From Marinobacter sp. (lineage in GTDB: Bacteria; Pseudomonadota; Gammaproteobacteria; Pseudomonadales; Oleiphilaceae), in the NCBI RefSeq assembly GCF_014859525.1, contig NZ_JACUUB010000003.1, forward strand, positions 39,790 through 103,789: a stretch of DNA of 64,000 bases, written 5' to 3'. Positions 37,322-50,475 of this stretch are shown one piece after another. A program made the translations under genes and the position numbers. The stretch's first letter is position 1. Each line of letters begins with the position of its first letter. The notes under the pieces are model-generated. The model was given only the letters and a program-made list of their open reading frames with translations. It did not search any database and was not told the origin of the DNA.

Positions 37322-37750
37322 TTAGCGCTTGCTGGCTTGTTGCATAAGGCGCGGTATGAGCCCAGTGATGTCATAACCCGCCTGCTGGGCTTTAGACAGT
37401 ATCTGTTGTGGTTCTTGCTCGCGGGCGCTGCTCAAGGACCATAATACGGTGCAGCGGGTACCTGAGCGGCAGAAGGCGAATACGGGCTTGGCGGCGTCGT
37501 GGATCATTGCACTAAAGTCGTCAACGTCAGCGTCGGTGATGTTGCCGGATTCTACGGGCAGGTATACCCAGGTCAGACCGTGCTCTGTTGCAGCGGCCTC
37601 GATATCGGCCATGGAGGGCTGCCCTGGTTCTTCCCGGTCTGGCCGGTTGGCAACCAGGGTTTTGAAACCCAGGCGCGCGATGTCTGCCACATCCTCGATA
37701 CTGATCTGCGGGGCGACGGAAATACTGTCATCGATCTTTCTGATATCCAC
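37322..37750 (-). CDS. TIGR01244-family sulfurtransferase (DUF442, phosphatase-like fold)
   Basis: SPQI-like VAPQI, ANRPDREEPGQP, PV.AFCRSGTRC; GTG start after GGAG. Confidence 0.88.
   Translation of the reverse strand: MDIRKIDDSISVAPQISIEDVADIARLGFKTLVANRPDREEPGQPSMADIEAAATEHGLTWVYLPVESGNITDADVDDFSAMIHDAAKPVFAFCRSGTRCTVLWSLSSAREQEPQQILSKAQQAGYDITGLIPRLMQQASKR
37479..37506 (-). promoter_or_regulatory. ECF11 (RpoE-ChrR)-type promoter inside the sulfurtransferase gene, directed at hemH
   Basis: TGATCC-acgacgccgccaagcc-CGTATT, i.e. TGATCC-N16-CGTAwT. Confidence 0.6.
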
Positions 37751-41027: not shown

Positions 41028-41771
41028 TTACGGTGTCAGCACACAATCTGGGTAGCGGGATACATCATAGCGAATGTGAGCGATGTAGTTGTCATCGGCG
41101 TTTTTGCGAATGTTGGTCAGGCCCAGGTACTCGGTTAGCGCACCTTCCCGGTTATAACCAAGCACAATCGGATCTACCAGAAATCTCAGAACCAGGCTCG
41201 TAGGACGTATCCGGACCACCACATCGGAACCGATCTGACTATTTGATGTTGGCTCCAACACAAACCCATAGTGTTCGCCTCTTGTCGGGGCAAGAAAACG
41301 GAATTCTACAGATTCGCCCTGTTTTACCTTGTTCCAGTTGGCCCTCACGAGGTGGTCAAAGCCGGCGTCTACAACGAGGCGGTCATCGAAAGAAACCTTG
41401 TGAGACTCCGTTTTACCCGCTGGGCTTTGCCATTGAACCTTGAGCTGCTCTGGCCCTTGATAAGAGATGTTCAGGTGTTCATCGTAATCCGGTTGGCTGA
41501 AATCAACGGTGGGGCGCAAAGCGCCATCTTCATAGCGCAGGGCTTTGCTCGCAAAAGTGCTGCTATCCTGGTTTGCTCGGTAGTCTACGCTGTGTGTAAT
41601 GGGCTGGAACACACCCTCAGCACAATGGCCTTCCACCCTGTGAGATTCCAGGTACAGCAGGTTGCCTCTGTCGTCCTTGGCGGTACCGGTGAACTCAAAC
41701 GGACTTCCGAATACCATCGGAGCACTCAAGAGGACCAGTAATGCGCTCAGGGAGACTGACGGTCGAATCAT
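41028..41771 (-). CDS. Hypothetical secreted protein (last gene of the lipid-modification operon)
   Basis: Signal peptide-like N-terminus; beta-rich; VVDAGFD motif; ATGA coupling with DUF2878. Confidence 0.8.
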   Translation of the reverse strand: MIRPSVSLSALLVLLSAPMVFGSPFEFTGTAKDDRGNLLYLESHRVEGHCAEGVFQPITHSVDYRANQDSSTFASKALRYEDGALRPTVDFSQPDYDEHLNISYQGPEQLKVQWQSPAGKTESHKVSFDDRLVVDAGFDHLVRANWNKVKQGESVEFRFLAPTRGEHYGFVLEPTSNSQIGSDVVVRIRPTSLVLRFLVDPIVLGYNREGALTEYLGLTNIRKNADDNYIAHIRYDVSRYPDCVLTP

Positions 41772-42292
41772 GACTGTAACTCCGAGTACAGGCTATTGCG
41801 GATGAATAGCAGCAGAGGAAAAAGTACCAGCCATCCCACGGCCATGGCCGCTAGAGACACGCTGAGATTGGGTAAGGTGACGATGCCGAGCTTGCTGGCG
41901 GACCAGTATGCAAAAGGGCCGGCTATTGGTGCAAAGACATAGGGCAGCCATTTACGCTGCCCCATCCACCCCAGAGAGTGACAAATGGTGGTCATGAAGA
42001 TCGCCCAGATCGCAACCAGCCACGGCGGTGCAACGAGGACGCTATCAACACCGGAAATGCCAAGCACGCCTGTCTGAAACCAGAGGGTGTCCATAAGGCT
42101 ACCGAGCACGACGCCAAAGCCGATAAACTGCAGCTCTACAAAGCGCTTTTGGCTTACCAGCGCAAAATGAAGTGCTAAAAACACCAACACCAACCCTGCC
42201 GCCGCCAAACCGGGGGCTAGCACGCAAGTCAGCCAGCCGATCTGGAACAGAACAAAATTGATGACGTTGCGGCCGGTCTCTGAGGCGATCAT
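41768..42292 (-). CDS. DUF2878 family membrane protein
   Basis: NFVLFQIGWL.CV, PPWLVAIW..F, GPFAYW. Confidence 0.85.
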   Translation of the reverse strand: MIASETGRNVINFVLFQIGWLTCVLAPGLAAAGLVLVFLALHFALVSQKRFVELQFIGFGVVLGSLMDTLWFQTGVLGISGVDSVLVAPPWLVAIWAIFMTTICHSLGWMGQRKWLPYVFAPIAGPFAYWSASKLGIVTLPNLSVSLAAMAVGWLVLFPLLLFIRNSLYSELQS

Positions 42293-43563
42293 AGGCTGAG
42301 GATATTGGTACGTTTGTTAGCGGGTTTGGCCATCACAAGATGGGCCACACCGATGGCACGCTCGCTGAAGCCCGCCTCGCAATAGGCAAAGTAGAAATGC
42401 CACAGGCGCTGGAAAGCGTCGTCGTAGCCTTGCTTGGCCAAGGTGTCGCGGTTTGCCATGAACCGATCGCACCAGTCTCTGAGCGTTCGAGCATAATGGA
42501 AGCCGAAATCTTCTGCGTGCGTCAGAACTAGGTCGGATTCCCGACGCATTGAGGTGAGTATGGCACCAAAGGAGGGAATAAAACTCCCCGGGAAAATAAA
42601 GCGCTGAATGAAATCTACGTTCTTCAAAGCACGGTCATAACGCTGTTCTGGCATATTGATGGCCTGGATCAGCGCCAGTCCATCGGGTTTGAGAAGTTTA
42701 CTGATCTGTGACAGATAGCTGTCCAGAAACTGAGGCCCGACCGCTTCGATCATTTCGATGGAAACCAACTTGTCGAACTGCCCCTCAAGATCGCGGTAGT
42801 CATCAAATAACAGTGTAATCTGATCCTCAAGACCTTCCGACTGGACTCGTGCTCTGGCCAGTTCCAGTTGCTCTTTAGAGATGGTGGTGGTGGTTACATG
42901 GCAACCGTAGTATTTCGCAGCATGAATGGCAAAGCCGCCCCAGCCCGTGCCGATTTCGACCACCCGATCTTCGGGTTTCAGATCCAACTTCTTGCAAATG
43001 GTGTCGAGCTTGTGGATGGCAGCTTCGTTAAGATCTGCGTCTTCTCGCGGATAAATCGCAGACGAGTACATCATGGTTGGATCCAGAAACAACTCGAACA
43101 GATCATTGCCCAGATCATAGTGGGCACTGATGTTCTTGCGGGAGCCTTCTGGTGTGTTTCGATTCAGCCAGTGCAGAGCCTTCAGGGCGGGTTTACTGAC
43201 CCAACTGAATTTGTCTTCGAACGCGTTCATTGTCTCGATATTACGGGTAAAAAATCTCAGCAGAGCGGTCAGGTCGGGAGAGCTCCAATCGCCAGCCACG
43301 TAAGATTCTGCTGCGCCAACACTGCCGCCGGTTACCAGATCACGCCAGGTAGTGTGGTCGTGAATAATCAATTCTGCGGCGGGGAAAGCCGGATTGTCAT
43401 CGCCGAAGACCAAATCTTCAAAACCCGCCTCACGAACCACGAGCCTGCCGTGACCCAGCAAGGACAGCTGGTGGCAAACCAGGCGTCGCGACACGCGACT
43501 GAGCGCCGGAATAGTCGAGCCACTGGCGGTTTGGTGGTCAGTGGACGTGTTCAGGTTCTCCAT
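42289..43563 (-). CDS. cfa: Cfa-family fatty-acyl methyltransferase (UfaM-like)
   Basis: NISAHYDLGNDLFELFLDPTMMYS, VEIGTGWGG, SIEMIEAVG, FIQRFIFPG, YCEAGF. Confidence 0.92.
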   Translation of the reverse strand: MENLNTSTDHQTASGSTIPALSRVSRRLVCHQLSLLGHGRLVVREAGFEDLVFGDDNPAFPAAELIIHDHTTWRDLVTGGSVGAAESYVAGDWSSPDLTALLRFFTRNIETMNAFEDKFSWVSKPALKALHWLNRNTPEGSRKNISAHYDLGNDLFELFLDPTMMYSSAIYPREDADLNEAAIHKLDTICKKLDLKPEDRVVEIGTGWGGFAIHAAKYYGCHVTTTTISKEQLELARARVQSEGLEDQITLLFDDYRDLEGQFDKLVSIEMIEAVGPQFLDSYLSQISKLLKPDGLALIQAINMPEQRYDRALKNVDFIQRFIFPGSFIPSFGAILTSMRRESDLVLTHAEDFGFHYARTLRDWCDRFMANRDTLAKQGYDDAFQRLWHFYFAYCEAGFSERAIGVAHLVMAKPANKRTNILSL

Positions 43564-44450
43564 GAGCTTACCCTGCCTTCAAGTTCTGAATGTTCGTGAG
43601 TCGATGCCGGTGATTCGGTAATATCTACACCTTGATCTTCCGCCCCCTTGCGATACCCACGGCTGCTTTCAACGAGTTTGTCCGGGTTGGTATAGAAGGG
43701 CGCGCCTTTAATCTTCAGTTTTAGCGCATTCCAGTAAATGCCGGCTGTACCCTTGATGGTTTCCAGCGGAAACCGTCTCAGGCCTCTATGTAAAGTTTTA
43801 CGGTCAAAGGGTATGCGTTGGACTACCAGAGTGGCATCAAAATGTTTTTGTTGGCCCTGCTCAACATTCATGTGGATTCTCAACTGGGGCCCCCGGAAGC
43901 TGAACAGCCATTGATAGTGCTGATTCATTCCGTTGAAGGGAGAGACATGAAACCGCTTACTGAAGGCAAACCGTTCGGTGTGCCAGTGGTCAGGATCTGT
44001 CACTTTCGATCGACGGGTTTCCAGACAATAGACGTGGCGCTGCTTCCAGGGTGTGTTGGTGATTTGAGCAAGGATAACGCGCGGAACATCGCCATATTGC
44101 GGGCTCTGGCCCGGCTCGTAGCACAGATAGAAACTCACCGGATTAAACACGTAGCCAAGATAACGGGGATGAGTGATCAACTCGATGGGACCTTCCGGCG
44201 CCCAGCCTGTCGCACTTTTTACCCGGTTGTAGACCGCTTGGCGAAGGCTTGGTACTTCTGGATCAAGGTAATCCTTTCGGTACAGAGACATCCAGTTGAA
44301 GCGTTCGAGTGAGAAGAATGGGCTGGACCGGGTAATAGAAGACCACTCATCCAGATCCAGTGCTAACATGCCAATCTTGTAACTAAAGTCATGTAAAACC
44401 GGGATCTTGCGACGATGTCTTATAGTGCCTTCTAACCAGTCAGTTGCCAT
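43551..44450 (-). CDS. DUF1365 family protein (UfaO-like)
   Basis: G.IRHRR..P..H.FSY, LGYVFNPVSFY, ITNTPW, K.FHVSPF. Confidence 0.9.
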   Translation of the reverse strand: MATDWLEGTIRHRRKIPVLHDFSYKIGMLALDLDEWSSITRSSPFFSLERFNWMSLYRKDYLDPEVPSLRQAVYNRVKSATGWAPEGPIELITHPRYLGYVFNPVSFYLCYEPGQSPQYGDVPRVILAQITNTPWKQRHVYCLETRRSKVTDPDHWHTERFAFSKRFHVSPFNGMNQHYQWLFSFRGPQLRIHMNVEQGQQKHFDATLVVQRIPFDRKTLHRGLRRFPLETIKGTAGIYWNALKLKIKGAPFYTNPDKLVESSRGYRKGAEDQGVDITESPASTHEHSELEGRVSSWRT

Positions 44451-44452
44451 GA

Positions 44453-45718
44453 TCAGAGTTCCACACCAAAGGCCTTGGTGACTCGCAACGCACTTCGCAC
44501 GCCATCTTCATGAAATCCGTTAAACCAATACGCGCCGCAGAAGTGGGTCCGGTTACGATTGCCGATCTCGTCGTATCGCCCCTGCGCGGCGACGGCTGCC
44601 AGGGTAAACACCGGGTGATCATATTCAAACCGTTTGATGACTTTGTCGGGGGCAATGTCGTGGCTGCGGTTCAGGGTGACGCAGAAGGTCTCCGGGGCGT
44701 CATGGAAGTTCTGCAGAACGTTCATGTTGTAAGTAACCGATACTGGTTGGGTGCTGTGCTCAGGAATCATGTAGTTCCAGGCTGCCCAGGCCAGTTTGTT
44801 GGAAGGCAGCACGCTGGCGTCGGTGTGCAGTACCACGTCGTTTTTCTGGTATGGAATAGCCCCCAGAATCTGCAGTTCCTGATCAGTCGGGTCACTTAAC
44901 ATGGCAAGCGCCTGGTCGCTGTGACAGGCCAGAATAACCTGATCAAACTGGTGTGTTTGGTCATTGACGGTCAGGCTTACGCCGTCCTTGCTGCGTTTAA
45001 TGCCGGTAACCGGGCTATTCAGGTGCGTACGCTCACCCAGGCGTTCCATCATACGAGTGACGTAACTGGCAGACCCGCCCGAGATCACTCTCCAGGTTGG
45101 GCGGTCATCCACAGACAGCATGCCGTGGTTATTGAAGAACTGAAGGAAAAACCGTATCGGAAATTGCTCAAGGATGATTTCTGGAGCAGACCAGATCGCG
45201 GCGCCCATCGGTACAATGTAATTGTTTCTAAAGTAGCGGCTGTAGCGGTTACGGTTCAAGTATTCGCCCAGGGTTTCACCTTCCGGGATCTGACCACTGG
45301 CCAGATCTGTGCGACTTTCTTTGTTGAAGCGAAGAATCTCACGGATCATTTTCAGAAAACCGACGTTAAGCAGATTCTTGCGCTGGGCAAACAGCGTGTT
45401 AAGGCTGGTTCCATTGTACTGAAGACCAGACGAGTGGCAGTCCACACTGAAACTCATGCTGCTGACTTCAGAAGGCACGCCAAGTCGATCCATCAGCTTG
45501 ATAAAGTTCGGGTAAGTCCAGTCGTTGTAGACTATGAAACCGGTGTTTACCGGCCAGGTGCGGCCTCCAGCATCAACTTTTTCTGTATTGGTATGGCCGC
45601 CCGCGTAATCGCCTGCCTCAAAAACATGCACGTCATGGTGTTCGCTCAACAGCCATGCCGCTGTCAATCCGGAGACGCCGGCGCCAATCACAGCAATACG
45701 CTGACGATTCGGGTTCAT
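44453..45718 (-). CDS. FAD-dependent oxidoreductase, amine-oxidase family (UfaD-like)
   Basis: IAVIGAGVSGL, GGHTNT, VNTGFIVYN..TYPNF, FCGAYW..GFHEDG; start ATG 45718. Confidence 0.9.
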   Translation of the reverse strand: MNPNRQRIAVIGAGVSGLTAAWLLSEHHDVHVFEAGDYAGGHTNTEKVDAGGRTWPVNTGFIVYNDWTYPNFIKLMDRLGVPSEVSSMSFSVDCHSSGLQYNGTSLNTLFAQRKNLLNVGFLKMIREILRFNKESRTDLASGQIPEGETLGEYLNRNRYSRYFRNNYIVPMGAAIWSAPEIILEQFPIRFFLQFFNNHGMLSVDDRPTWRVISGGSASYVTRMMERLGERTHLNSPVTGIKRSKDGVSLTVNDQTHQFDQVILACHSDQALAMLSDPTDQELQILGAIPYQKNDVVLHTDASVLPSNKLAWAAWNYMIPEHSTQPVSVTYNMNVLQNFHDAPETFCVTLNRSHDIAPDKVIKRFEYDHPVFTLAAVAAQGRYDEIGNRNRTHFCGAYWFNGFHEDGVRSALRVTKAFGVEL

Positions 45719-45749
45719 GCAATTCTTTCCTGTATCTGGAGAGTTCGGT

Positions 45750-46532
45750 TTACGAGTTTTCGTTACGTGCCATGGAGGCCGCCATGCGATCAATAAGAGC
45801 TTGGGGCAGTGCCCCCAGGGCCTTTAGCGTCCAGGTAAAACGCCGGGGGAACGCGATTTCAGACTTACCTTTCTCCAGGCCTGTTCGGATTCGTGTTGCT
45901 GCGTCTTCCGAACTGATGATGAACGGCATTGGGAAATCATTGCGGTCGGTCAGAGGGGTTTTTACAAAGCCCGGAGAGACCACTACCACATCAATGCCTT
46001 CAGCGGCCAAGTCTGCTCGTAAGGCCTGGGCAAAATAGGTCAGGGCGGCTTTAGATGCACCGTAGCCCTCAGCCCGTGCAAACGGGAACCACCAGGCGGA
46101 AGAGCTGACGATCACCAGAGTTGCAGGCTTGCCTTTGGCCCGGGTGGCGCGCAGTGCCGGTAACGCAATATCGAGGCTGCGGGCGGTTCCAACCACGTTG
46201 GTGACCATGTTGGCCTCAATAATCTGACTATCATAGTTAGCGACATCAAGGTATTCGCAGGTGCCGGCGTTAAGAATGGCCATATCGAGGTCGCCAAAGT
46301 GATTCAGCGTACCTTTTATGCTTTCAAGATCGGCGTTACTGGTGGTGTCTGCGGCTGCCGACACCATCTTGCCAGGGTAATGAGAGGCCAGAGTTTCCAG
46401 CGCTTCAAGTCTACGGCCAGTAACGATCACGTTGTGACCATGTTTAGCCAGATCATGAGCGACGGCTTCGCCAATGCCCGAAGACGCCCCGGTTAGCCAT
46501 ATGTTGCTACTACGAGAAAGGCGTTTGCTCAT
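45750..46532 (-). CDS. Short-chain dehydrogenase/reductase
   Basis: WLTGASSGIG, LNAGTCEY, YGASKAA, SPGFVKTPLTD.N.F.MP. Confidence 0.92.
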   Translation of the reverse strand: MSKRLSRSSNIWLTGASSGIGEAVAHDLAKHGHNVIVTGRRLEALETLASHYPGKMVSAAADTTSNADLESIKGTLNHFGDLDMAILNAGTCEYLDVANYDSQIIEANMVTNVVGTARSLDIALPALRATRAKGKPATLVIVSSSAWWFPFARAEGYGASKAALTYFAQALRADLAAEGIDVVVVSPGFVKTPLTDRNDFPMPFIISSEDAATRIRTGLEKGKSEIAFPRRFTWTLKALGALPQALIDRMAASMARNENS

Positions 46533-46996
46533 CCAGCCTGCTCCTTAACCCAGCGAATGACACCACCCACCACCGGCAGGTTTTCATACAGAAGCTGGCC
46601 TGCGTCGAAATAGTCGCGGTGATAGCGAACTCGTCCATCACGGATTTCCAGATGGCTAATTCCTTCTACCTCTACTGTTTTACCGCCTTTGATCCGTTTA
46701 TGCTGCAATTCCATTACCCAGGGAATGGTGCACCAACCGCGCTGAACCACGGAAGAACCAAACCGAAACTGGCATCGGATTACATTGCCGTAGGCACCTG
46801 CAAAATAGTGTGTTAGCTCATCCAGCCCATTAACCTCTCCAAATGGATCCCGAAACTGGATGTCTTCTCCATAAACTTCTTGAAGCTTGCTCAGATTGCC
46901 TTTGTCCAATTGATTGAACAGACTGCAGAACCTCTCCAACACCAATGGAAGTGTTGAGTCGGATGTACCGATGTCAATGATAGAGGCGGTTGTCAT
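46529..46996 (-). CDS. Nuclear transport factor 2 / SnoaL-like protein
   Basis: Y..DI.FRDPF..V.G, HRDYFD.G.LLYE.LPVVG; start ATG 46996 overlapping the desaturase stop. Confidence 0.88.
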   Translation of the reverse strand: MTTASIIDIGTSDSTLPLVLERFCSLFNQLDKGNLSKLQEVYGEDIQFRDPFGEVNGLDELTHYFAGAYGNVIRCQFRFGSSVVQRGWCTIPWVMELQHKRIKGGKTVEVEGISHLEIRDGRVRYHRDYFDAGQLLYENLPVVGGVIRWVKEQAG

Positions 46997-47949
46997 TGGC
47001 GCTTCCTCCTCAGGTTGTCCAACTCGCGGGTTTCTTGCTGAATGTGAGCGGGTATCGGGTTCAGATCCCAGACGATGCCCAGTTTTGATAGCACCCAAAG
47101 CCCATACCAGGTGAGGTCTATTTCGTACCATCGAAAGCCTTGTCTAACAGACTGCGGCCAACGATGATGGTTGTTATGCCAGCCTTCGCCGAGCGTAATC
47201 AAGGCCAGCCAAACGTTATTTCGGCTATCATCGTCGGTATCAAAGCGACGTTTGCCCCAAACGTGAGACAGGGAATTGATCGAAACCGTGGCATGGAACA
47301 AAAATACCGTCGAAATGAAGAAGCCCCAGACCAGTAACTGAAAACCATTGGTTTCCAATCCGGGTGCCCATGCGGCCAGAGCTTCGCCGATTGCGTAAAT
47401 GAGTACTGCAAAGGCGGCCGGAACCAGTGAGTCAAACCGGTTGATGAAGCGCAACTCAGGGAATTTCAGCCAGTCACGTATCCGCCGTTGATCCATGGCA
47501 AAGCCTGCATCGCAGGTAAACCATCCTGCGTGAGACCACCAGAAGCCACCTTGATGGGGGGAGTGGAGGTCTTCTGGATCATCCGAGTGTTGGTGATGGT
47601 GCCTGTGATGAGCGGCCCACCAAAGCGGACCTCGCTGAGCCGCGCTTGCGCCAAGAACCGCAAAGAAGAACTGAGCTTTACGGCCGGTTTTAAATGTTTT
47701 ATGGGAGAAGTACCGGTGATAAAACCCGGTTATTGAAAACATCCGGATCACAAAAAAAACGATCGCAAATACGACGGCGAAGGTACTTACGCCGGTAAAG
47801 AAAGCTAACAGACAGGCAAGGTGTAGCGCGATAAACGGCAAAACCCTAACCACGTTGAACGACCTGGAACTGGTGTCCAGGTGATCTGTTCCGGCTTCGG
47901 AATCGAACCATCTCAGAATGTTTGTTAACCAGTAATTCATTTGGGCCAT
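46993..47949 (-). CDS. Acyl-CoA/acyl-lipid desaturase (delta-9 type)
   Basis: Three His boxes HRYFSH, HRHHH, HNNHH; GEGWHNNHH; start could be 47949 or 47940. Confidence 0.92.
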   Translation of the reverse strand: MAQMNYWLTNILRWFDSEAGTDHLDTSSRSFNVVRVLPFIALHLACLLAFFTGVSTFAVVFAIVFFVIRMFSITGFYHRYFSHKTFKTGRKAQFFFAVLGASAAQRGPLWWAAHHRHHHQHSDDPEDLHSPHQGGFWWSHAGWFTCDAGFAMDQRRIRDWLKFPELRFINRFDSLVPAAFAVLIYAIGEALAAWAPGLETNGFQLLVWGFFISTVFLFHATVSINSLSHVWGKRRFDTDDDSRNNVWLALITLGEGWHNNHHRWPQSVRQGFRWYEIDLTWYGLWVLSKLGIVWDLNPIPAHIQQETRELDNLRRKRQ

Positions 47950-47957
47950 ATAAAACC

Positions 47958-48971
47958 ATGCTTAAAGTGACATCAGACATCACATCAATACGCAATGTCG
48001 CGGTTATCGGTTCAGGTCTGGCGGGCCTTTCGTCAGCCATTATTCTTGGCCAGATGGGCCATAATGTCAGGGTGTTTGAAAAAAGTCGCGGTCCTGGCGG
48101 CCGAATGTCGTCGAAACGGGTCAGCGATGGGTCTGCTGACATCGGAGCGCAATATTTCACCGTCCGAAACCCGAACTTTCTCACCTTCTTACACCAGTAC
48201 GCTGGTGCTTCCACGTTTGATACGTGGTCAGCCCGGTTTGGGTTTCAAGATTCGGATAACATCTGGCAGCCGTTCCCGCAAGAGAACCGGTACGTGGGTG
48301 TTCCTCGGATGACCGCAATCACCCGTGCGCTCTCAGCCGGCATAGATTTGGTATCGGAAGTCCGTATCGAACGCCTGGTGCAAGCCGGTGAGCAGTGGCG
48401 GTTGGAATGCACAGAAGGGAAGAGCCACGGGCTGTTCGATCAGGTGGTGATAACTGCGCCACCGGCACAAGCTCAGGACATTTTGATGGGCAGCGGGTTG
48501 GCTGAACTGGCTGCAAAACTGGTATCGCCTGTCGAGCAGATTTTACCGTGCTGGGCGGTTGCTGCCCATTTTGCGCAACCGCCAACCGACCGATTTGACG
48601 CCATGCGACCAAATTCCGACACGCTCTACTGGGTGGCCAACAATTCTTCCAAACCGGGCCGTGACGGTTCTGGTCAGTGGTGGGTGCTGCATGCCACCCC
48701 GGAGTGGACAAAGGCTAATGTTGAAACAGCACCGGATGAGGTGTGCGCCGAATTGTTGAGGGAGTTCCGGTCTTTGACGGACCACACCGGTGACCCGACC
48801 GAAACTGTCGCACACCGTTGGCTGTATGCACGCTCGGCAGACGCTGACAATCCCGGCTACCTGCTGGATCAGAAAAAGCGCATTGGATTGGCCGGGGACT
48901 GGCTGGCGGGTGGTCGGGTTGAGGGCGCTTGGGAGAGCGCCACCAAACTGGCGGCAGCCATGCAGTCTTAA
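47958..48971 (+). CDS. NAD(P)/FAD-dependent oxidoreductase, renalase-like
   Basis: VAVIGSGLAG, FEKSRGPGGRMSSKR, DIGAQYFT, HRWLYA, GDWLAGGRVEGAW; start uncertain. Confidence 0.88.
   Translation: MLKVTSDITSIRNVAVIGSGLAGLSSAIILGQMGHNVRVFEKSRGPGGRMSSKRVSDGSADIGAQYFTVRNPNFLTFLHQYAGASTFDTWSARFGFQDSDNIWQPFPQENRYVGVPRMTAITRALSAGIDLVSEVRIERLVQAGEQWRLECTEGKSHGLFDQVVITAPPAQAQDILMGSGLAELAAKLVSPVEQILPCWAVAAHFAQPPTDRFDAMRPNSDTLYWVANNSSKPGRDGSGQWWVLHATPEWTKANVETAPDEVCAELLREFRSLTDHTGDPTETVAHRWLYARSADADNPGYLLDQKKRIGLAGDWLAGGRVEGAWESATKLAAAMQS
47987..48014 (-). promoter_or_regulatory. ECF11-type promoter inside the renalase gene, directed at the desaturase operon
   Basis: TGAACC-gataaccgcgacattg-CGTATT, one mismatch to TGATCC-N16-CGTAwT. 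Confidence 0.55.
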
Positions 48972-48990
48972 CTGCCTCCCGAATCAGAGT

Positions 48991-50475
48991 CTATTCTGAC
49001 AGGTCTGAGGGCGCCGATTTGGTGTTCTCAGGCCGGCTATAGAAATGCGTAATGGTGCCATCGCCGAATTTTGAGAAAAACGCACTGACCTCGGTGATTT
49101 TTCGCAGAGAGCGTTCCCGGCTAACCGGATTTCTGACCAGTACCTTGATGCCGTTAAAATTATCCTGAATGTTCGAAAAACGCGCACGCATGGAGCAGGT
49201 CACCACATTGTGCGGAATCAGTTTAAGTTGATCGGCAAGCCACTGGCTGTGCTCGTCTATCCTTTGTCGATCGAGGTTTTCTCGGGTATCCAGGTGGTCT
49301 AGTTTAATTCGGTTTACGATGCAGAATGAGTAGCTCTGGGGTTGCCGTCTCGCCACTTTTCGGAAGGCTTCCCAAAAGAAGTTGTCCGTCAACTCAGCAA
49401 AAAACTCCATATTACTCAGACAGGTATCGATCCAGTCGAAACTTTCCGGATCTTCCAGAACCTCATTGATGGCCTCTCGCAAAAGCCAATCAAAGCCGAG
49501 AGCCGTTTTGTGGGCATACACTTTCCGGTACATCTGGTATCGGCTGTACACAAAGTCTTCCAATGCGCCCAGCCCCTTTTGAGTAATGGCGAGGCCCATC
49601 CAGGGCTCAGAAACTTCCCAGCCAAAACGCAGGTTGCTCAGAAGGTGGTCCAGGTTGAAGCCGCCGATGGTCACGGAGCTGTGGAAACCGTCTCGAAGCA
49701 TATAATCGGCCCGATCTGCGTCTATCTCACCGGATACGATGGAGGCGAGCAGCCCCATAACCAGGCCGGGCACATCCTGTTCGGCGATGGTGCCTGCAAC
49801 AGCATCATCACCGGCAATAAATTCCCAGAAGGTCCGGGAGTGACGACAAAAGGTTTCGCTGGGTGTTACCCGAGTGGTTTCCATAATGCCGATAACATCA
49901 ACGGCGTTCAGGCCAGCACTGTCCAGATCGACCGATGACAACACTTCGTGGGCAACCCGCACTGAATAGTGCTCGTGTTCGAGTTCATCGGGCTCTTGAG
50001 AATGGTAGTGACCGTAATCAACGCCGGCCCACAGATCCCGAAAACGCCCCGGCCGCGACATCAGTTCCCGAATGCGCCGGGCCTGAGTGAACTGGTGTGA
50101 AAAGCTGGAGTGACCGCTGTCGTGCAGCAGGCAGCTGAGACGAATGGTCTTAGCCAGGTAATCAATAGCGTCGAGCTGACTCAGACTCAGGTCTGTGCGC
50201 TCGCTAAGTTGCCGTTCGCGCAAATACGCATCGATCATGGAGCGGAACATTCTGGTGCCAACGTGCATCACTCCAATGCTGTGAAGGAAGCGAGAGTGTG
50301 TTGCGCCGGGAAACACCAGGCTCAGAATATCGTTCTGGCAGATGTTCCGAAGCCGCTGGAACAGAGGGTGGTCAATCACCTGGATTTCGTGGCGGTAAAG
50401 TGGAATGCCACCGTGCACGGGGTCCATGATGAGCTTGTCATAAGCACCAAGCAGATCGTTGACGGCACGTCTCAT
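48991..50475 (-). CDS. HD-domain phosphohydrolase, SAMHD1/dNTPase-like
   Basis: DPVHG, HP.FQRLR.I.Q, VFPGATHSRF.HSIG, LLHDSGH..FSH, IDADRADY..RD. Confidence 0.85.
   Translation of the reverse strand: MRRAVNDLLGAYDKLIMDPVHGGIPLYRHEIQVIDHPLFQRLRNICQNDILSLVFPGATHSRFLHSIGVMHVGTRMFRSMIDAYLRERQLSERTDLSLSQLDAIDYLAKTIRLSCLLHDSGHSSFSHQFTQARRIRELMSRPGRFRDLWAGVDYGHYHSQEPDELEHEHYSVRVAHEVLSSVDLDSAGLNAVDVIGIMETTRVTPSETFCRHSRTFWEFIAGDDAVAGTIAEQDVPGLVMGLLASIVSGEIDADRADYMLRDGFHSSVTIGGFNLDHLLSNLRFGWEVSEPWMGLAITQKGLGALEDFVYSRYQMYRKVYAHKTALGFDWLLREAINEVLEDPESFDWIDTCLSNMEFFAELTDNFFWEAFRKVARRQPQSYSFCIVNRIKLDHLDTRENLDRQRIDEHSQWLADQLKLIPHNVVTCSMRARFSNIQDNFNGIKVLVRNPVSRERSLRKITEVSAFFSKFGDGTITHFYSRPENTKSAPSDLSE

Follow-up and report, generated by a model that had tools for sequence, protein, structure and literature searches.

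Promoters of the RpoE-ChrR (ECF11) class have been described in Rhodobacter sphaeroides, Pseudomonas syringae (PSPTO_1043) and Shewanella oneidensis (RpoE2). ChIP-seq with qRT-PCR for P. syringae PSPTO_1043 gave the consensus TGATCC-N16-CGTA (PMC5507510), and the Shewanella RpoE2 elements, TGATCC and CGTATT with N16 between them, come with mapped start sites (PMC4336711). Functional ECF11 sites accept variants of the -35 element, namely aGATCC, TGAgCC and gcATCC (PMC5507510), and the conserved core of the RpoE-ChrR regulon consists of Cfa/UfaM-like, SDR, FAD amine-oxidase-like (UfaD-like) and DUF1365 proteins (PMC5507510, PMC7380195, PMC6852236). The Marinobacter site analysed here, which we call P1, shares both elements and the N16 spacing with these promoters, and the operon downstream of it is like their regulon in holding genes for a cfa-like methyltransferase, an SDR, an FAD amine-oxidase-like protein and a DUF1365 protein, with the sigma/anti-sigma pair encoded in the genome. 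Unlike those promoters, P1 is not intergenic: it is written on the antisense strand of a divergent renalase-like gene, within codons 1-20 of that gene and on its GxGxxG FAD-binding motif. Its usual -35 element in Marinobacter is TGAACC, and its dependence on RpoE is predicted.

Two further kinds of system bear comparison. Excludons were first described in Listeria, and their defining behaviour is the inverse expression of the two units. The present locus resembles them in its divergent genes and in the predicted overlap of their 5' ends, by which the mRNA of one unit would be antisense to the start of the other; it differs from them in that the overlap is short (at least ~24 nt plus the renalase leader) and is known here from geometry. 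Intragenic promoters and dual-use codons likewise have a regulatory signal and a protein share the same bases, with constrained synonymous sites. Compared with intragenic promoters generally, the constraint at P1 is unusually clean (TCA in 150/150 genomes and xTA in 150/150), residues of the protein are apparently dictated by it, and P1 comes with a natural series that leads from a two-promoter state to a single-promoter one. Neither the promoter class nor the regulon is new. New are a promoter embedded antisense in codons under complete synonymous constraint, the mark that it has apparently left on the protein, and the fact that the intergenic spacer and a second promoter-like site (P2) are missing repeatedly, in different lineages.

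The locus lies in a window of 64,000 nucleotides, by which we mean the whole stretch of DNA that was analysed, from a Marinobacter draft genome (3.23 Mb, 165 contigs, 56.7% G+C). According to the list of open reading frames, the genes of the operon are tightly packed, with short overlaps or gaps between neighbours, and the first of them starts back-to-back with the renalase-like gene. The features of the locus are as follows.

41028-46996, minus strand: remainder of the operon, encoding SnoaL-like, SDR, FAD amine-oxidase-like, DUF1365, CFA-synthase-like methyltransferase and DUF2878 proteins and an unknown 247-aa protein (ORFs and Pfam)
46993-47949, minus strand: fatty-acid desaturase, gene 1 of the 8-gene operon (Pfam FA_desaturase, E 8e-23; ATG at 47949)
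47950-47957, no strand: 8-nt spacer ATAAAACC between the divergent start codons (sequence)
47958-48971, plus strand: renalase-like FAD oxidoreductase, 337 aa (ATG at 47958-47960; Pfam Amino_oxidase and NAD_binding_8)
47979-47983, minus strand: predicted transcription start of the operon, placed by the usual distance from a -10 element to its start
47987-47992, minus strand: P1 -10 element CGTATT; its core CGTA (47992-47989) is the 'TA' that closes codon 11 and the 'CG' that opens R12
47993-48008, minus strand: 16-nt spacer of P1, from the last base of the R12 codon through codon 17; residue and codon both vary at 13-17
48009-48014, minus strand: P1 -35 element TGAACC, shared with the GSGxxG FAD-binding motif at codons G18 (GGT) and S19 (TCA)
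48991-50475, minus strand (that of the operon): HD-domain gene, upstream of the operon

The same motif occurs with the same spacing and the same CGTATT at 37479-37506 in the window, inside a sulfurtransferase ORF. This candidate RpoE-type promoter of hemH is like P1 in motif, spacing, -10 element and coding location, and differs from it in lying on its host gene's own strand, so that no antisense overlap arises.

A sequence-only reading of this DNA had claimed that the desaturase and renalase-like genes almost touch, and had left the desaturase start at either 47949 or 47940. The triplet CAT at 47947-47949 is a desaturase ATG on the minus strand, and a further in-frame ATG lies at 47940. We compared the start codons in a first set of 32 orthologues from the genus and, for the renalase-like gene, in a larger set of 150. 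An ATG 12 codons ahead of the RWFDS motif of the desaturase is kept in 32/32 orthologues, and the start is therefore 47949; the ATG at 47940 is not conserved and was ruled out, so that of the two starts on offer only the first stands. The renalase ATG lies 17 codons ahead of the first Gly of GSG in 30/32 orthologues of the first set and in 135/150 of the larger one. In 8 of the 32 it is the sole possible start, an in-frame stop lying 2-8 codons upstream, and the stops that several relatives carry at this distance also rule out TTG 47922 as the renalase start. Because both ATGs are conserved across the genus, the 8-nt gap is real and no artefact of start choice: the true starts, rather than lying much further apart, are the conserved codons at 47949 and 47958, close together as had been claimed.

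The letters and coordinates also bear out the claim that TGAACC-N16-CGTATT is encoded across the SIRNVAVIGS codons of the renalase-like gene. The motif runs from 48014 to 47987 on the minus strand and spans codons S10 to S19, and its -10 element ends 37 nt ahead of the desaturase ATG. With transcription starting at the predicted 47979-47983, the 5'UTR of the operon would measure ~30-34 nt (~31 nt for a start near 47980) and be antisense to renalase codons 1-8. A canonical Shine-Dalgarno sequence is absent from this 5'UTR and likewise for the renalase-like gene, and the 8-nt spacer ATAAAACC provides none to either gene. An Rfam scan matched no known RNA family, and folding of the predicted 5'UTR gave no significant structure.

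The genome encodes the factors that such a promoter would call for. ChrR was found at C77:44132-44758 (TIGR02451, 151.5 bits against a cut-off of 124.5), with an ECF sigma ORF directly upstream of chrR and AATCC-N16-CGTACA upstream of the pair. The corresponding site upstream of rpoE-chrR in 26 other Marinobacter genomes reads (C/A)TGATCC-N16-CGTA(A/C)AT. The N16 spacing of P1 is that of 27 Marinobacter rpoE-chrR promoters and of published sites, and by Pfam the operon downstream of P1 encodes the core-regulon families (Cfa-like, SDR, amine-oxidase-like and DUF1365). Our literature search found no paper on the ChrR regulon of Marinobacter.

The -35 element of P1 matches the consensus TGATCC at 5/6 positions, and the same TGAACC is present in 143/150 relatives, the exact TGATCC being present in 7. 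As a bare motif, P1 is unremarkable: TGAACC-N15-18-CGTA is present in 31/100 shuffles of the window, and TGAWCC-N16-CGTA has 8 copies genome-wide against 11 expected from base composition, with no enrichment. This chance-level frequency and the TGAACC that stands here instead of TGATCC both weigh against P1. One match in one genome is at or below the chance level, and the case therefore rests on comparison with relatives; as far as the aligned sequences tell, what exceeds chance is the position and conservation of the motif and not the bare motif. With a weight matrix built from 26 orthologous rpoE promoters, P1 fell outside the 40 best sites of the genome. We rejected this matrix as a fair test of P1, since it is over-fitted to a single promoter.

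For this comparison, we collected 151 Marinobacter species genomes that carry the operon. The motif TACG-N16-GG(T/A)TCA is kept at renalase codons 11-19 in 150 of the 151. Among these 150, the Ser19 codon is TCA without exception, and the Gly18 codon is GGT in 143 and GGA in 7; GGA, the sole tolerated change, turns TGAACC into a perfect TGATCC. All 150 have a codon 11 that ends in TA, although it encodes I, V or L (ATA 132, GTA 12, CTA 3, TTA 3), and Arg12 is CGN in 150/150, never AGR. In these genes ATA, TCA and GGT count among the minority codons, and codons 13-17, between the P1 elements, vary freely.

The same positions stood out when we ranked codon entropy in a codon alignment of 32 orthologues, among 94 columns with a conserved degenerate residue: I11 has the lowest entropy of all, S19 and G18 are second and third, and R12 is sixth. 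The adjacent invariant residues G20, G23 and L24 reach 1.65-1.90 bits against a median of 1.72, which is near maximal, and the neighbouring invariant glycines use all four codons. Since G20, G23 and L24 use all their codons, synonymous sites are saturated at the depth of 32 orthologues, the promoter elements excepted. Renalases of other families, taken as outgroups and not located beside the operon, have GAG or GTG, lack both the motif and the I/V/L-R pair, and begin 4-6 residues ahead of the first beta-strand. The desaturase occurs in just 1/24 genomes from other families, in a different neighbourhood and with the motif absent; therefore, the ancestral state is not polarisable by outgroup.

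The protein itself appears to bear the mark of P1. From residue 14 to residue 332, the renalase-like protein matches the solved bacterial renalases PDB 3KKJ (E 1.1e-63) and 4ZCC (E 4.6e-63), a similarity along the full length that would place it in the bacterial renalase family, whose members oxidise the inhibitory 1,2- and 1,6-isomers of NAD(P)H (PMC7660482). Residue 14 of the query aligns with chain residue 5, giving a 9-residue N-terminal extension relative to the Pseudomonas renalases, and this extension carries the P1 -10 element and the predicted start site. Arg12 and the Ser of GSG, both absent from the outgroup renalases, were probably imposed by the promoter.

The spacing between the two genes varies within the genus. 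The exact 8-nt gap, whose conservation the sequence-only reading had proposed to check, is shared by 31/151 Marinobacter genomes, this one included, and most relatives have a longer gap. In 111 genomes the gap exceeds 60 nt; it is mostly 106-118 nt, and the long spacers span 70-146 nt overall. In 110 of these 111 genomes, the spacer holds P2, a second, intergenic ECF11-type site on the minus strand (GTGCATCC-N17-CGTA) that ends 8-9 nt ahead of the renalase ATG. The same 110 genomes carry a conserved leader, AAGGGCAATCAGGGT-ATG, which is the source of the Shine-Dalgarno sequence of the desaturase. The 31 genomes with the 8-nt gap lack P2, and the 7 of them that a 32-taxon renalase tree includes group together as one clade (support 100/98). 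Cultured strains with this gap include M. vinifirmus FB1, M. halophilus JCM 30472 and M. daepoensis DSM 16072, whereas M. similis A3d10 and M. flavimaris LMG 23834 are among those that have P2. The bases before the renalase ATG in long-gap genomes, ATAAACC-ATG, resemble ATAAAACC-ATG; a single deletion of leader and P2 would fit the 8-nt-gap sequence, and we infer that loss by deletion is the likelier direction. Further lineages have gaps of 19, 28 and 40 nt, likewise without P2, so P2 is missing more than once while P1 is constant: in all 39 genomes with a gap of at most 40 nt and no P2, P1 is present. In the 8-nt-gap clade, P1 is, to judge by its sequences, the only RpoE-type promoter left for the operon.

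In three genomes, the renalase-like gene has been lost or is a pseudogene. In G016, the gene is gone except for a 65-nt 5' stub, which stands 126 nt after the HD-domain gene and is oriented into the operon; neither the ATG nor the hydrophobic first strand has survived in it. The stub nevertheless retains 10/10 of the TACG and GGTTCA bases at the right spacing, whereas 18/55 other positions differ from G003. The two long-gap genomes G022 and G121 carry a renalase pseudogene and an intact P2, and in both P1 is destroyed, by ATA -> ATT in G022 and by TACG -> TGCG plus a deletion of the -35 element in G121. P1 is therefore dispensable where P2 is present. No genome that we examined lacks P1 and P2 together, and P1 was lost only in G022 and G121, which keep P2; this never-both-lost pattern is to be expected of two functional promoters that are redundant with each other.

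We consider it very probable, from these sequence comparisons, that P1 is a working RpoE promoter of the operon inside the renalase-like gene. The ECF11 motif with its spacing, the synonymous constraint in 150 species and the retention in G016 give this placement strong support. Under photo-oxidative or singlet-oxygen stress, the ECF11 sigma factor RpoE would be freed from its anti-sigma factor ChrR, and RNA polymerase with RpoE would bind over renalase codons 10-19. Transcription would begin near 47980, run leftwards, crossing first the start codon of renalase and then the 8-nt spacer, and enter the desaturase-SnoaL-SDR-amine oxidase-DUF1365-Cfa-DUF2878 operon. The 8-nt-gap clade would do so without the ~100-nt spacer that in most Marinobacter holds P2 and the Shine-Dalgarno leader of the desaturase. 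Since P1 lies in coding DNA, codon choice is fixed to xTA-CGN and GGT/GGA-TCA, and two residues of the renalase-like protein, R12 and S19, are probably fixed with it. What can be read from the sequences directly is the geometry, the motif match, the cognate sigma/anti-sigma pair, the conservation and the natural deletions; the dependence on RpoE, the precise position of the start and any influence of P1 on the expression of renalase are inferred from these.

The sequence-only reading had also placed each promoter inside the other gene. For the operon promoter this agrees with the motif, its spacing, the constraint across 150 species and G016; for the renalase promoter the claim is one of geometry, and we found no convincing plus-strand promoter. 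A sigma-70 scan of 47000-49200 gave none upstream of the renalase-like gene, and the 5' codons of the desaturase, compared by hand between 8-nt-gap and long-gap genomes, are equally conserved at the nucleotide level, with no promoter specific to the 8-nt gap. By geometry, the renalase promoter of the 8-nt-gap clade would fall among the desaturase codons or past them. One could imagine a leaderless renalase mRNA from CATAWW-N5-ATG, though the case for it is weak.

If P1 fires and the renalase-like gene is transcribed, the two transcripts must overlap by at least ~24 nt, since a polymerase at P1 covers the renalase start. Because P1 lies within the gene in every one of the 150 species, the 110 with P2 among them, the overlap appears to be ancestral and no by-product of compaction; on this evidence it would be genus-wide and would predate the 8-nt gap. 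Whether the overlap also regulates is a more tentative matter. Reciprocal antisense interference, as the sequence-only reading had suggested, follows from the geometry as a hypothesis to which we give rather less than even weight, and a stress-dependent shut-off of the renalase-like gene is plausible speculation.

Under photo-oxidative stress, an excludon-like arrangement would silence the renalase-like gene: RpoE would drive antisense transcription across its codons 1-25, and polymerase would occupy them. P2 would drive the operon, and P1 would do so only where P2 is missing. The presence of P1 within the gene in all species, those with P2 included, speaks for this reading, as does the position of the renalase start codon, on the opposite strand and ~22-25 nt downstream from where P1 is predicted to start. 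Further, the sole two P2-bearing genomes with a renalase pseudogene are those in which P1 has decayed next to an intact P2; these cases number just two, however, and in G121 the gene-killing deletion itself took out the -35 element. G016, in which no renalase remains to regulate, retains P1 all the same, and the never-both-lost pattern fits simple redundancy equally well. We regard this arrangement as possible but doubtful. It overlaps with P1 as the working operon promoter and does not exclude it, and part of the conservation of P1 could serve renalase control rather than operon expression.

The conserved bases might instead be some other signal of the renalase-like gene, such as the operator of a regulator, an mRNA element or a rare-codon ramp. 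They do fall within codons 1-20, a part of genes that is often constrained at the mRNA level, they involve the minority codons ATA, TCA and GGT, and they decay upon the death of the gene in G022 and G121. Against this, the conserved bases are exactly the two ECF11 elements at exactly the 16-nt spacing, with freely varying codons between them, and the sole tolerated change yields a perfect consensus. The elements also survive in G016, where a renalase mRNA is untranslatable, and an RNA element finds no counterpart in the Rfam and folding results. We therefore consider a signal of this kind improbable. That the motif is inactive, the operon being read through from the HD-domain gene (48991-50475) or transcribed from an unrecognised promoter, is least probable of all: we looked for a minus-strand terminator-like site in the stretch that separates the operon from the HD-domain gene and found none, and the bare motif occurs at chance frequency, but neither the complete conservation of synonymous sites in 150 species nor the retention of the motif in G016 can be explained in this way.

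As the working promoter of the operon, P1 may have a wider role, which we put forward with low confidence: that of a genus-wide dual switch, by which one RpoE polymerase would turn on a membrane-lipid protection operon and, through occupying the renalase start and transcribing over it, turn off an O2-consuming flavin oxidase in photo-oxidative stress. The host protein would have gained a genus-specific extension together with the promoter-dictated Arg12 and Ser of GSGxxG, and the repeated loss of P2 and spacer in separate lineages (gaps of 8, 19, 28 and 40 nt) would mark P1 as indispensable.

In summary, P1 is a very clean natural case of a promoter and a protein on shared bases, in which the promoter has apparently shaped the protein sequence, and it can be used as a test case for methods that seek regulatory signals within genes. 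It also calls for caution in annotation, as an operon with practically no upstream intergenic DNA may own a dedicated stress promoter. For Marinobacter, the comparisons would extend the RpoE-ChrR photo-oxidative regulon to the genus, with a tandem-promoter layout that is missing more than once, the internal promoter then being the sole one. They further raise the possibility that a lipid-protection operon is coupled to a renalase-like oxidase of NAD(P)H isomers, which is open to bench testing.

The first codons of the desaturase gene that leads the operon seem to be conserved beyond what they encode. Codons 9-20 (NILRWFDSEAG; window 47890-47925) are almost invariant in nucleotide sequence when compared with the same place in the relatives' loci L008-L050, and this is common to genomes with the 8-nt desaturase-renalase gap and to those with the long gap alike. 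The arginine in this stretch is encoded by AGR every time (CTGAGRTGGTTCGA); the rest of the genome favours CGN. Together, the near-invariant nucleotides and the exclusive use of AGR suggest a further nucleotide-level constraint on these codons, for instance a signal at the level of the mRNA or of translation.

In the intergenic alignment of the long-gap relatives, the stretch that separates the desaturase leader from P2, the intergenic ECF11-type site, contains a semi-conserved block, (G/T)GAACCTTGATCGCAC (for example in L025, L029 and L149-L156), and after it short palindromes (CAGCC..GGCTG). Block and palindromes, which are absent from the 8-nt-gap genomes, could be a hairpin in the 5'UTR of the operon or a piece of the renalase promoter. 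The 19-nt gap in L213 (G093) and L249 (G106, M. salinexigens) is a separate compaction: the N-terminus of their desaturase (MSGNNVQYLL...) has been remade from sequence that forms the P2 spacer in other species, and the P2 -10 element, now CGTG, therefore lies within desaturase codons.

P1, the predicted promoter inside the renalase gene, is intact in two loci with a broken renalase reading frame, L138 (G134; 275 aa ORF) and L225 (G180; 224 aa ORF). Since both genomes are metagenome-assembled, the broken frames may be assembly artefacts or mark genes that have recently become pseudogenes.

The operon is preceded on its own strand by another gene:

window 48991-50475, minus strand, HD-domain gene

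It is convergent with the renalase gene, whose stop codon is 19 nt from its end (window 48972-48990), and no terminator-like site was found on the minus strand between it and the operon. Read-through from the HD-domain gene, antisense to the entire renalase gene, is therefore possible.

Further RpoE-type sites occur in the same genome, one matching the ECF11 consensus exactly and four of the TGAACC-N16/17-CGTAT type, intergenic and at promoter distance:

window 37481-37506, minus strand, exact TGATCC-N16-CGTA inside a small sulfurtransferase ORF, upstream of hemH
contig C22:8538, minus strand, TGAACC-type site
contig C158:21562, plus strand, TGAACC-type site
contig C65:34887, plus strand, TGAACC-type site
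contig C153:900, minus strand, TGAACC-type site

TGAACC seems to be a frequent -35 form in this genome. Downstream of the four intergenic sites are pdxH (pyridoxamine-phosphate oxidase), a DUF393/DCC gene (thiol-disulfide oxidoreductase) and an OvoA-like gene (sulfoxide synthase/methyltransferase, 720 aa), which are possible additional members of the RpoE-ChrR regulon.
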